From assembly GCF_006345805.1 (NCBI RefSeq), contig NC_043018.1, positions 8,804,001 through 8,868,000 on the forward strand: a stretch of 64,000 nucleotides of DNA. Reading direction: 5' to 3'. The notes beneath the pieces are model-generated. The model searched no databases. It saw nothing but the letters and a program-made list of their open reading frames with translations, and was not told where the DNA came from. The translations under genes were made by a program, and so were the position numbers. The DNA comes from Octopus sinensis (Eukaryota). Shown here in pieces: positions 8,048 to 58,640 of this stretch (within the stretch, counting starts at the first letter, position 1; each line of letters opens with the position of its first letter).

Positions 8048-8094
8048 TCATCTGATACATGCATTTCTGTATTGTTGCACTTCATCAGCTATGA
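8048..8094 (-). ncRNA. Degenerate type-I hammerhead-like motif
   Basis: Minus strand TCATAG-CTGATGA-AGTGCAACAATACA-GAAA-TGCATGTA-TC-AGATGA; core boxes intact, stems I and II imperfect. Confidence 0.5.
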
Positions 8095-8936
8095 ACACTG
8101 AATCAGTCTTTCATAGTTCTGTAAGATTGCTCATTGTTATATATAAGAAAAGCAAGTACAACATTTGCTGATATGCGTATGCAGCAGTATGTACAGTCAT
8201 CTTTTACATTGTTCCTGTACACTTGGACATGGGAAAACCTCTTGCTGGGAAGACACCTGAGTCTACGGGAACATGTTAAACAAGATTGTACACATATATA
8301 TTTATTTCGACATTGTTTCAGACACCCATTGTTAATGTATAGTTATATATTTATACATATACAAATATATGCACAAAGCCACATCCACCTATTCACACAC
8401 CTACCACTATAGCTGCTAACCTCTCAGAGCGACATTAACACAGCTGCACAGATCCTACCACACGTATACACATACACAAACACACACACACACACAGAGG
8501 CTACACAATCACAACCACTTCTCATACACACACACAGTTACCACCATATGCACACATGCTACCATGCACACACACACACACATAAAGTTACTGCCACACA
8601 CACATGCTATCATGCATAAACATACTACCACACACACACACACAGAGGCTACACAATCACAACCACTTCTCACACACGCACACACACACAGTTACCACCA
8701 TATGCACACATGCTACCATGCACACACACACACATAAAGTTACTGCCACACACACATGCTACCATGCATACACATACTACCACACACACACACTGACTAT
8801 CTTCACACTCTCCTGTCCCAGAAAACACTTTCTCTTCCTCCTTCTACTTCTGGTTACTTCAGAAATGTAACAGCATATAGAATGTTGGTGATTTTTCCTC
8901 CTTCTTTCTTTCCCTATGGACTTTCCTGTTTTTCCT

Positions 8937-8971
8937 GTTTCCGATGAAGAGTTATGCTCAAAACATAAAAC
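8937..8971 (+). ncRNA. Decayed minimal hammerhead motif in a PLE-like 3' end
   Basis: GTTT-CCGATGAA-GAGT tat GCTC-AAAA-CA-TA-AAAC; stems pair but the core is mutated. Confidence 0.45.
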
Positions 8972-9432
8972 AACAACTCTCTTCTTCCTCCAAGCGACAT
9001 ATTAATACATTGCTTGTGCTACATCCCCATGTTTGTTCGTTTCTCTTTTTTTATCTTATTTATAATTGATTATATGTATATATATATGTATGTATATATG
9101 TATGTACATATATATGCATGTATATGTTTGTATATGTATGTGTGTGTGTATGTATATATGTATATGTAAATATATATATATACACACATATATATACCTA
9201 CATACATATATATATACCTACATACATATACCACATACATATATATATACCACATACATATATATACCTACATATATATATATATACATACATATATATA
9301 TATCTATATGTATGTATGTATGTGTGTATATATATATATATATATACAGTTCAAAAATATACAAAAGACAGGAACAAGTAAATGAAAAACAACAACAAGG
9401 TGCATTAGTTTGACACTCAAGAAAAATAGGGG

Positions 9433-9470
9433 TCTTTGACATTTCATGCCGACACTCTTCTACAGAAAGA
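9433..9470 (-). ncRNA. Decayed minimal hammerhead motif (CUGUAGA variant)
   Basis: Minus strand TCTTT-CTGTAGAA-GAGT gtcg GCAT-GAAA-TG-TC-AAAGA. Confidence 0.5.
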
Positions 9471-55499: not shown

Positions 55500-55893
55500 T
55501 GCAAAGAGTCTCGTCTCGTTCCAAACGTGACGTCAAACCTTTATTAATCTTTCTTCTTCTCATTTAGAATATTAATATCGTCATTTTCCACAAAGTTGCG
55601 AACATCGTCGTCACAACCACTATTTACTTATTTTCTCTTTTATTACTTTCCATAAATATCGAGTATTTGTGGCGTAAGTAAAAAACAAAAACAACAGGAA
55701 AGCCCCCCCACCTCGTCATCATCATTATTATTAATTATTACAATTATAATTAATAGTTGTTAATTTGTACTTACTAGTAATTACTAGTATTTTTTAATTT
55801 TTTAAAATTTATTGTTGTCGTTTGTTGTTTGTTGTTTTTGTTTGACTGGAGCCACCCACGTGACCAGTGACGTGACATTACGAGATATCAACA
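55500..55893 (+). promoter_or_regulatory. Candidate promoter or 5' UTR with CRE and E-box motifs
   Basis: TGACGTCA at 55528-55535; CACGTG at 55857-55862 followed by TGACGTGA; locally CpG-rich unique sequence. Confidence 0.3.
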
Positions 55894-56007
55894 ATGACTT
55901 CGGGAAGGAGCGGCAACAACAATCACAACAACAAGGATAGCTGTATCGGGAACAGCATGGCTACCTCGGGCGTCACTGTTGTTGGCCAGGAGGTCGTTAT
56001 CTACGAG
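55894..56007 (+). CDS. Candidate first coding exon of an unidentified host gene (38 codons, phase 0)
   Basis: ACAATG start context; MTSGRSGNNNHNNKDSCIGNSMATSGVTVVGQEVVIYE; strong donor GAG|GTAAGC; GC-richer than flanks. Confidence 0.5.
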
Positions 56008-58454
56008 GTAAGCACCGACGTTTCTCTTCACCACTTTGCCGTTATTATTATCTTTATTATTATTATCGCTGTTGTTGTTGGTTTCGCGGATTAGGCCCTC
56101 CACGCCCCCGCGCTAATCCTCTCTGTCCCGGTGTCTGTCACCCGATTAAAAACCCCTTCAAATTCTCTTATAATTTCACTGACAACTGTTAAACAGAAAA
56201 CATCACCCTCCAATACCTAACTGGTACTATTTTTATCCACCCTCGGAAAAAAAATAAGTTAGTTGTCCTCGGCAGGATTCGAACTCAGAACGTAAAGAAC
56301 CATAGCAGACTATTTCCACGACGCTCTATTAATTCTGCCAGTTCATCGTCCTCACATCATTTATGTCTCTTATACTTTCTGGAGAGGAAAATGCATGAAC
56401 GTCTCACCGACTCTTTTCTCTCTTCTTTCCCTACCAACTTAGAGCTTTGGTCCTTTGCGAGTCCCCTCCCCGCCATCGTTAATGTTCAAACCCCACCAGG
56501 GTCTCGACTTGGCATTCCTCATCTTGTGTATCAATAAAACAAGGCCCACAGCAACTTTTGTGGGGTCTCTAAGCCTTACTTTCATTTTATATAGTATTCC
56601 TGCTTCGTACAACAGGAATTACAATTCTGAAAGAATCTTGTGTCCCCAAATATTTGAATTTTAAAAAGTGCTCTCCCTCCCGCCTCCGATTTCCTTTTCC
56701 TTCCCCATGCGGTGGGGACAGCTGTTCCCCAAAGTCCATCCTTTCATCCTTCTGGGGCCGATAAAATAGAGTAAGTATTGAGATCGATATAATCAATAAT
56801 AATATGCCAGAATCGTTAGCGCGTCGGACGAAGTGCTTGGGGTCGATTAAATAAGTACCAGTAATGCACTGGGGTCGATATAATCGTCTTAATACCTATG
56901 CCTGTCCTTGTTTGTCCTCTCTGTGTTTAGCCCCTTGTGGGTAGTAAAGAAATAGGTATTTCTTTCGACACTTTACGAGTTCAAATCCTGCCGAAATTGA
57001 TTTTACCATTCATCCTTTCGGGGTCGATAAAATAAAGTAACAGTCAAATATGGGAGTTGATATAATCGACTAACCCCAACCCTTCAAAATTGTTGGCTTT
57101 GTGCCAAAATGAGAGAAACAAATGCTATTATTGTTATTGGTAATCACCAGAAATGTAAACGATACAGTTCTTGAACTGGATCTCATGACAATTTTTTTTT
57201 CATGACCCTCTGCTGTTGAAAACCACTTAATAAGTGTCGTTCTTTCAATCTAACACACACACTGAAATGTCACGGACGTCACCATCATCCCATGCCTTCG
57301 TTCCATTTTACTAAATAATTCTAAAGTTATATAGTTTAAGTTATTAGTTATATATGTTTGTCTATAAAGAAATAAATATCTGTGTACATGTGTTGTTCAT
57401 CTTCGGTATGTCTTGTCCATATTTCCTTTCCTTCCCAAATAAAATCTGTTTCTGTCAACATCGTCCCCAGAGGCAGGGCGGGTGTCTTTCACTGTTTTTT
57501 TTTTTTGTTGTTGTTTCGTGTTTAGTCTTGTTCTCTGACCCCAGATCAGCTGTCACTGAGCAAACTCTATGACCGCAAGCGTTACAGGCGTGACCAACTC
57601 GTCTTTTATTCAGACATTGTATTGGGGAGTTAGATTTGGCTGCTATTTCTTGATCGCATGGAAGTTCTCTTGGCTCAAAATGTTGTATATCTGCATATTA
57701 TTTATATATTTGATTGTTGTGTTTTAGCCCTAGGCTAGCCTCGATTGAGTAGACCCATGATCAAAGACGTTCCAGTCGTGGTCATCCCGCTTTGTATTCA
57801 GATATAGTATATCGACGACTATATTATCCGTTCCGATCTGTCCTTTTCTAAAGATGGTAGGATGCGATTTAAAAGAAAGATATAGTTGCTATTTCTAGCG
57901 GGATAGGCAACCACGTAGGGACCTTCCTTCATTGATTCGTCGATGTGTTTGTATGTTTATTCAGATTCTGCTGTTAGTGTGGTCGTGTTGACTCGTGTGT
58001 GGATGTTTTGTGTGTGTGTGTGTGTGTGTGTGTACGTGCACCCTATCTTTAATTCACCTTGCCCACAGCCCTTTTACCGTCATAAGTTTATGTCCCTCTG
58101 AACCACTGGTGCTGTGTCAACATTGTCCCTAAAGACAGGGCGGGTGTCCCTTGTAGTTTAATTAGTTTCTGTCAGTTGTGTGTGTGTGCGAGCGTGACCG
58201 TGTGTTGGTGCGTTGACTTAAGATGTTTTGTTTCTAAGTTTCATTTGTTTTTGTTTGTCATGTGTGGTGAGATGTGTGCGTGCGTTTCAGTGTCTAACCG
58301 ATTGCAAATCCCTATGTTTACAATTATGTGTTTTCCTACAGCATTAGGGCATTTTAGCTCTTATTTCTAGCAATGTAGATGTCCTGACACCCTTAGTCGC
58401 ATTTAAGGACAATTATATTTTTCCTTTATGGAAACACATTGCGTATGGCTGTTT

Positions 58455-58640
58455 ATATATGATAGATCGTTAGACACTACACACATTTTTTCTCTCCTTG
58501 TTTTTTCTGTCTCCCTTTCTGTAGAAGAGCATAGGCTCGAAACGTAAAATACTTTTTCTATTCCTGAGCGTTATACTAATACATCTGTTTGTTTTGTACA
58601 CCACCTGTCTTCGTCTTTTGTTTTTTTCGTAAACTCTCCC
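58455..58640 (+). mobile_element. Solo 3' pLTR fragment of the PLE family at 16404-17482
   Basis: Aligns to the reverse complement of 16404-16585 and ends at the same CTCCC-(TA)n junction. Confidence 0.8.
58516..58549 (+). ncRNA. Minimal hammerhead motif with CUGUAGA core
   Basis: TTT-CTGTAGAA-GAGC atag GCTC-GAAA-CG-TA/AAA; palindromic ACGT at stem III. Confidence 0.65.

Follow-up and report, generated by a model that had tools for sequence, protein, structure and literature searches.

The stretch of DNA analysed here, hereafter the window, consists of 64,000 nt of the 2.72-Gb genome of Octopus sinensis (contig NC_043018.1, positions 8,804,001 to 8,868,000). It is rich in microsatellites and repeats, and a first-pass annotation had assigned to it ten hammerhead ribozyme motifs of type-I topology, mostly next to (TA)n. 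All ten are present at the places indicated, and each recurs elsewhere in the genome as a multi-copy repeat. We consider it probable that they form the 3' termini of repeats ending in (TA)n, from nine families that are likely all Penelope-like elements (PLEs) or non-coding dependants of PLEs; that nine of them are minimal type-I hammerheads; and that the tenth, at 50614, is a clipped copy of a permuted hammerhead, predicted to be self-cutting, in which stem II is replaced by pairing with an extra strand. The features of the window are listed below; L followed by a number labels a locus elsewhere in the same genome, RT stands for reverse transcriptase and ORF for open reading frame.

8048 to 8095, minus strand: type-I minimal hammerhead, decayed, of an old family with copies about 70-90% alike; C3 at 8088.
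8936 to 8972, plus strand: type-I minimal hammerhead (motif 8937), decayed; family core U4C, palindromic 4-nt stem III.
9434 to 9469, minus strand: type-I minimal hammerhead (motif 9433), decayed; family core A6U, older sister of the 58516 family.
13146 to 13183, plus strand: type-I minimal hammerhead, intact, with the U3-A8 covariant core; 3' end of a PLE with RT and GIY-YIG.
16491 to 16524, minus strand: member of the 58516 (A6U) family, decayed, forming the 3' end of a PLE remnant.
17229 to 17493, minus strand: GIY-YIG endonuclease remnant contiguous with the 16491 element (tblastn E 2e-17).
31811 to 32300, plus strand: non-coding element of ~480 bp with a terminal direct repeat of ~30 bp and frequent inverted copies.
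32031 to 32089, plus strand: type-I hammerhead, canonical and intact, inside the preceding element; core and GAAA in 19 of 24 other copies.
45817 to 45878, plus strand: type-I hammerhead; canonical core in the family (20 of 23), C-to-T just before GAAA in the window copy.
46270 to 46842, plus strand: GIY-YIG endonuclease ORF of the PLE ending in the 47217 motif (PF01541 E 0.002, below the curated cut-off).
47217 to 47261, plus strand: type-I hammerhead; A9C fixed in the family (21 of 24).
50585 to 50632, plus strand: 5'-truncated copy of a putative permuted split-core hammerhead, with the GAAA block at 50585-50597 and the CUGAUGA block at 50614-50632.
50633 to 50743, plus strand: 3' tail of the 50614 element, with two internal deletions and then (TA)n at 50704-50743.
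58458 to 58640, plus strand: non-coding element of ~180 bp ending in (TA)n; most genomic copies are TA-flanked on both sides.
58516 to 58549, plus strand: type-I minimal hammerhead, A6U, inside the preceding element; A6U in 27 of 29 copies.

Families were built by searching the genome with the surroundings of each motif and aligning the copies, with 25-30 loci per motif kept out of 29 to 2,671 first-look candidates. By BLAST the ten motifs belong to nine repeat families (16491 and 58516 are one), or to seven if the sisters 58516, 9433 and 8937 are merged. A type-I descriptor was compared with 131 block-wise local dinucleotide shuffles of the window. With a perfect core there was 1 match versus 0.015 in the shuffles; with one core mismatch there were 3 matches versus 0.50 (shuffle maximum 3), and with two core mismatches 12 versus 6.8 ± 2.4 (shuffle maximum 12), which overlaps the shuffles. 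The descriptor recovered 5 of the 10 motifs, no Rfam hammerhead family reached the gathering score in the window, and for two intact motifs Rfam returned no hammerhead even near E 10. Motif counting by itself is weak, and the degenerate calls are not established by it. One might conclude from the two-mismatch overlap, from the blank Rfam result and from the fact that 50614 was indeed miscalled that the motifs amount to chance matches, or to by-eye calls, in DNA of low complexity. This explanation is very hard to sustain, because each motif lies in a multi-copy family whose consensus hammerhead is better than or equal to the window copy, and because the reversed versions of the 4,401-match permuted pattern described below and of the A6U, sister and 50614-family patterns have no matches at all. 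It is refuted for nine motifs as type-I hammerheads and for the tenth as a permuted motif.

At the level of sequence, the family consensuses are the real support for the motifs. In nine cases they follow the order CUGANGA, stem II, GAAA, stem III, UH, stem I, and give back the stems together with a canonical or fixed-variant core (U3-A8, U4C, A6U, A9C); the shared type-I topology of the first-pass annotation therefore stands for these nine and falls for 50614, in which two internal deletions mimic it. The core is canonical or a described variant (U3-A8, U4C) in 8048, 8937, 13146, 32031 and 45817, and neither of these in the A6U families (58516, 16491, 9433) and in the A9C family (47217). The window copies of 32031, 13146, 47217 and 58516 agree with the motif of their own family; those of 45817, 16491, 8937, 9433 and 8048 are decayed and restored in the consensus. 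That the odd cores are simply degenerate is not supported, as U3-A8, A6U, A9C and U4C are each the majority state of their own families. These nine motifs are ordinary minimal type-I hammerheads in repeat tails, known PLE biology.

A (TA)4 tract is found within 300 bp downstream of nine of the ten motifs, versus 22.5% of random window positions (binomial p = 1.2e-5), in agreement with the nearness to (TA)n originally noticed. The exception is 8048, which belongs to an old family without a fixed TA link and has its (TA)4 1,289 bp away. In five younger families the motif-to-TA distance is near-constant (medians 94-158 bp) and TA is therefore the 3' junction of the element; each family has a fixed 3' end that runs into TA. 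The idea that the motifs are the tails of several PLE-type families ending in (TA)n is supported. Hammerheads beside (TA)n in PLEs, in large numbers, are already published biology (PMC4209133; excerpts of PMC8557442), and the same excerpts report a (TA)n preference in the PLEs called Naiads and discuss one for Neptune (Craig et al. 2021, PMC8557442). Four type-I families are tied to GIY-YIG ORFs (13146, 47217, 45817 and 16491/58516); the copies preceded by GIY-YIG number 10 of 25 in the 13146 family, 8 of 22 in the 47217 family and 2 of 21 in the 45817 family, and in the window two motifs, 47217 and 16491, do lie downstream of GIY-YIG sequence, as had been stated.

The tenth motif has a different organization. 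As a type-I motif 50614 was rejected: its apparent stems II and III were created by the two deletions and are absent from the family consensus. In the family, GAAA lies 30 nt upstream of CUGAUGA, and a cleavage-site strand upstream of GAAA can form 5 bp with the bases after GAA and, past one unpaired base, 6 bp with the bases before CUGAUGA. The block order is cleavage site, GAAA, CUGAUGA, that is, non-circular and SGC-like, and stems I and III cross. By eye, stem III seems to be extended by a second helix and the GAAA-to-CUGA linker pairs upstream of the cleavage-site strand. The window copy is without the cleavage-site strand and the upstream extra strand, and begins 11 nt past the predicted cut. 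In one subfamily only (L309, L202 and L319 around 1480-1515) the loop between stem III and its extension fits the kink-turn consensus by eye; we do not claim a kink-turn here.

A three-block scan of a 600-kb sample of the genome (sixty evenly spaced 10-kb pieces) recognized the same order, with different stems, at L258 and L252, which are unrelated places in the sample, and the order is also seen at L202. The other permutations (CSG, GCS, SCG, GSC) gave 0-3 low-complexity matches each in these 600 kb, in a scan run without shuffle control. Exact matches to a tight permuted pattern number 4,401 versus 0 for the reversed pattern; a second permuted pattern, which includes one family of unclear wiring, has 1,820 matches versus 61 reversed, and the 50614-family pattern has 251 versus 0, with 133 perfect copies of the cleavage site plus GAAA. 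Altogether the genome contains about 6,000 exact-pattern relatives of the permuted design. When the blocks of a copy are matched with its own cleavage-site strand, 8 or 9 of the 9 pairs form in 68 of 106 copies, a set that includes truncated ones, versus 9.4% of 9,026 cross-subfamily swaps. The core is kept from C3 to A9 and from G12 to A15.1, in part because the search pattern imposes it; U16.1 is present in 18 of 19 alignment rows, and H17 is A, C or U in all 19, never G. Three candidates were discarded during this search: an SGC match at window position 22854, which has a low score and looks like chance in a remnant of a long interspersed nuclear element (LINE); the GIY-YIG ORF of L312 as a partner of the permuted motif, because that ORF family ends at its own TA; and the GIY-YIG ORF in L258, which belongs to an A6U-type element.

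The place of stem II appears to be taken by the extra strand, so that the order along the chain is extra strand, cleavage-site strand, GAAA strand, CUGAUGA strand. The extra strand consists of two halves with a hairpin between them; one half pairs with the base that directly follows A9, the other with the base that directly precedes G12. The five bases before GAAA form 5/5 Watson-Crick pairs with the upstream strand in 52 of 111 copies versus 0.4% of swaps, and the bases after CUGANGA pair with a strand still further upstream. Covariation was studied in an alignment of 21 rows, chosen as well-preserved representatives and excluding the Naiad family and the subfamilies without a cleavage-site strand; for the anchored counts the rows were anchored by sequence alignment, and two were dropped as their upstream part is missing. 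In the remaining 19 rows, the paired cells number 94 of 95 for stem I, 69 of 76 for stem III, 87 of 95 and 81 of 95 for the two helices of the extra strand, and 72 of 76 for the base of the hairpin. Over the five helices in all 21 rows, 92% of the cells are paired and 16 of 24 pairs are changed on both sides, with slid-partner controls at 38-50%. Of the 42 cores that could be anchored (out of 125), 41 pair the base directly after A9 with the extra strand, as U-A (29), G-C (9), U-G (2) or A-U (1). Since the strands after A9 and before G12 both pair upstream, the chain would therefore exit the core at A9 into one helix and re-enter it at G12 from another. In the loci L301-L330, about 35-45 nt upstream of GAAA, the 3' side of the hairpin resembles a 3' splice site (a pyrimidine run and CAG); this sequence sits just before the second half of the extra strand, and splicing there would take out half of the scaffold.

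Alternatively, the permuted family might be of plain type SGC, its stem II a direct helix of 4 bp rich in wobble pairs and its upstream strand part of another (e.g. inhibitory) fold: 73 of 76 cells allow a direct stem of G-C, G-U, G-U/G-C and G-C, in which the first G-C pair is invariant. The Watson-Crick content of this stem, however, is no better than in shuffled rows (38 of 76 cells versus 35.5), the base after A9 covaries with the upstream strand, and the Naiad family described below has only 2-3 direct pairs. In addition, in the published Naiad consensus that precedes Naiad_Ppla the strands on both sides of 'stem II' are C-rich, so that there is no direct pairing, and by eye both pair upstream. 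A plain type-SGC fold is thus improbable, and we retain the split core.

If the permuted RNA cuts itself, the 5' ends of its truncated copies might be expected to bear a trace of the cut. TA-flanked truncated copies, defined by a (TA)n tract no more than 30 nt upstream of GAAA, were counted by hand among the first 100 matches listed (one contig): of 26 distinct loci, 22 begin at the predicted cut or up to 10 nt beyond it, 2 begin upstream and 2 are ambiguous. Versus a uniform distribution this pile-up, an indirect sign of cutting, has p = 1.5e-8, or 3.6e-7 with the ambiguous loci counted against it. In the 50614 family the predicted cut site is preceded by TA-like bases. These results can be accommodated in the following scheme. 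From what is known of PLE biology, the endonuclease would nick TA-rich DNA, and reverse transcription would begin near the RNA 3' end and usually halt early; because of this early stop, short hammerhead-bearing tails would accumulate in the same TA tracts. Cutting by the minimal type-I motifs whose stem III is palindromic would be slow and would take place in dimers or with the help of protein. In the permuted RNA, the two extra-strand helices would stack at the place of stem II and rebuild the normal active site; the RNA would be cut after H17, and truncated insertions would start at the cut because the 3' cleavage product often serves as template.

A competing account holds that the folds are real and selected and no longer cut, serving as a handle for the PLE protein, and that the cores with A6U or A9C are inactive variants. 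In its favor, cleavage by minimal PLE hammerheads is poor (PMC4209133), a rate below 0.1 per min was obtained for A6C (excerpts of PMC3088659), and A6U copies have spread regardless, with 5,036 exact matches. On the other hand, the permuted family keeps every catalytic base across subfamilies with wholly different stems (with the core partly required by the search), H17 has the same restriction in all rows, and insertions begin after the predicted cut. Overall, loss of cutting is rather unlikely as a general explanation; it has a better chance in the type-I families with A6U or A9C than in the permuted family.

One family of the permuted design (L353, L374-376, L381-400) has a C-terminal RT remnant that ends about 0.9-1.0 kb before the motif, with RT matches in 13 cores and no GIY-YIG after the RT. 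This RT has weak similarity to the PLE RT of L233 (best E 6e-5) and no Pfam match; for the RT piece of L415 no homologue was found among longer proteins. By eye, the 3' end of the family matches the published Naiad_Obim and Naiad_Ovul consensuses in the excerpts available, a match on which its probable identity as Naiad rests. According to the same excerpts, Naiads lack canonical hammerheads and eight of them are marked 'HHR_half_core'. We judged by eye excerpts of the published consensuses (PMC8557442 File S5), a minority of the 54 records. Complete type-CSG hammerheads form the end of five of these, namely the records that precede Naiad-1_Nbra, Naiad_Hcon, Naiad_Hpol, Naiad_Asuum and Naiad_Lpol; their stems I and II measure 4-6 bp, stem III 5-12 bp and the helix joining stems I and II 9-16 bp. 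Going by record order, the five are probably Parc, Nbra-3, Hcon, Hpol and Asuum, all nematodes. The record before Naiad_Ppla, probably Naiad-4_Dst from an ostracod, displays the split-core design; the ostracod record before Naiad-4_Dst gave no clear hammerhead reading by eye, and a squid Naiad record has stems I and III in SGC order with the remainder decayed. The permuted repeat group is likely self-cutting, and would then be the ribozyme believed to be missing from Naiads. More generally, we lean towards the view that Naiads and their non-coding dependants are not ribozyme-less, and would carry non-circularly permuted hammerheads across animals (CSG in nematodes, and a four-strand split core without direct stem II in cephalopods and an ostracod) that are active in vivo, their cuts defining the 5' ends of many new insertions. 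The 50614 family itself looks non-autonomous, and its shared architecture points to a possible dependence on Naiads. The matches obtained in ORF searches upstream of its copies come from a common short repeat in the query. Among this family and its nearest subfamilies there are also head-to-tail arrays of a non-coding unit of ~835 bp, each unit with a permuted hammerhead (L398:2430-4950, L313/L314, L362/L363), which are candidate sources of a retrozyme-like circular RNA.

A number of observations weigh against the interpretation given here. The covarying rows are related subfamilies of one superfamily, picked for being well preserved, so that the counts overstate the number of independent events; the shuffle ignores this relatedness, and 17 of 500 shuffles matched the double-change count. 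The helix next to A9 is weakly above the row shuffle (79 Watson-Crick cells versus a mean of 71 and a maximum of 80) and is seen in 15 of 111 copies versus 4.6% of swaps. A fourth subfamily, picked up with a looser pattern (L351, L366 and L371), has GAAA upstream of CUGANGA and no cleavage-site strand where an SGC model expects one. As for the truncations, TA microhomology at the junctions may inflate the pile-up, the count rests on the first 100 matches listed from one contig, and most truncated copies begin 3-10 nt past the cut and not on it. Insertion of the Anolis Poseidon in vitro proceeds without need of hammerhead cleavage, according to the excerpts of PMC11167929, which also favors loss of cutting. 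With respect to the elements, neither RT nor endonuclease was found upstream of the 50614 family and its closest subfamilies in the loci examined, and for the families of 8048, 8937, 9433 and 32031 no ORF was found within 1.5 kb.

Profiles made from the window's own families and from the permuted ones were used to estimate density in the same 600-kb sample, with reversed sequence as control. They gave 26 matches, about 23 of which span the core (by-eye count), versus 0 in the control. This corresponds to 2.5-2.8 per 64 kb versus 10 in the window (Poisson p = 2-6e-4), a ratio that is inflated because the window was picked for its motifs and the profiles were built from its families. The assumption that the density of the window is typical thus fails, the window being about four times the genome sample. 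The very large ribozyme complement predicted for the genome is upheld: by extrapolation the genome holds about 1e5 copies, mostly decayed, and two type-I patterns alone have 5,036 (A6U) and 5,550 (its mostly canonical sister) exact matches, with 0 for each of the reversed patterns.

Further details of the type-I families are as follows. The window copy of 8048 has lost 8 nt including the cleavage site, and part of its palindromic stem III; in the family consensus the core is canonical and stem III palindromic, and core and GAAA are present in 17 of 24 other copies. The 8937 copy has lost G12, and a complete core is present in only 5 of 23 other copies of this old family; U4C is a known natural core variant (excerpts of PMC3088659). 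A6U is found in 13 of 15 readable copies of the 9433 family, and U3-A8, a covariant core known from PLE hammerheads (PMC4209133), in all 24 copies of the 13146 family. At about 12940-13079, directly upstream of the 13146 motif, there is a truncated copy in inverted orientation. The GIY-YIG interval at 17229 to 17493 is spanned by L242 and L258 as two overlapping alignment parts. The terminal repeat and the inverted copies of the 32031 family are features shared by PLE insertions; a link of this family to an R2-group LINE was dropped, as the two matches are one place with an inverted copy between. A GIY-YIG ORF precedes the 45817-family copy in L231, and by eye the GIY-YIG ORF of this family (L231:3476-3970 and 6500-6994) looks like a Hydra-clade excerpt. 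The 58516 unit is arranged in tandem in L029. In the lineage with a 4-nt loop II (window 58519 and 9465), U or C occupies position 6 of the core, position 7 differs between subfamilies, and C3, U4, G5, G8, A9 and GAAA are kept; the sister lineage, canonical in its core, is of similar abundance, as the exact matches given above indicate. A long near-perfect inverted repeat at about 44640-44930 of the window, directly after (TA)n, is the source of a spurious MIR841 match.

These findings can be compared with known systems. The nine type-I motifs share with the known minimal type-I PLE hammerheads the type-I order, a short or palindromic stem III, the extra base after A9, G10.1-C11.1 and the U3-A8 variant, as well as their occurrence as thousands of mostly solitary copies in consensus families. 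Unlike in the known cases, whole families here fix A6U (27 of 29 copies in the 58516 family) or A9C (21 of 24); neither kind of family was found in the full-text literature searched, which leaves most subscription papers outside it. Non-LTR retrozymes (bioRxiv 10.64898/2026.07.22.740005; PMC7229834), as far as the excerpts of these reports go, are likewise non-coding PLE-derived units, solo or tandem; they are defined by type-I hammerheads, whereas the L398-type arrays carry the permuted form. With the Naiad PLEs the L353-type family has in common the C-terminal RT, the (TA)n preference and a near-identical octopus Naiad 3' end; the excerpts of the Naiad paper report no canonical hammerheads, whereas by eye its consensuses include CSG forms in five records and split-core, SGC-like forms in the octopus records and one probable ostracod record (PMC8557442).

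The closest relatives of the 50614 family in architecture are the type-SGC hammerheads (HRIMA-1 and variants), which in the excerpts of PMC10085705 have the same order of cleavage site, GAAA and CUGAnGA, stems I and III that cross, a short stretch linking stem I to GAAA, and a full core. There, stem II is a direct helix and an extra helix joins stems I and II; in the 50614 family, stem II appears to give way to two helices formed with a fourth strand, which lies upstream and encloses a hairpin. The permuted family would thus combine the type-SGC block order with a new hammerhead wiring, supported by covariation, and seems to lack the direct stem II, the part taken as fixed in the block model of those excerpts. 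If it cuts, the fold space of hammerheads would be widened, the Naiad 'half-cores' would be explained, standard descriptors and Rfam would be missing a large class of animal ribozymes, and the 5' ends of insertions would offer a genomic read-out on the role of PLE hammerheads. A full-text search, with most subscription papers outside it, returned no publication placing non-circular hammerheads in retroelements or animal genomes. According to the excerpts of PMC10085705, such hammerheads came previously only from metatranscriptomes and metagenomes, bar one bacterial candidate, and the type-SGC RNAs only from metatranscriptomes, with none in genomes of known organisms; the 50614-type motif, unlike these, is present as thousands of genomic repeat copies in an animal.

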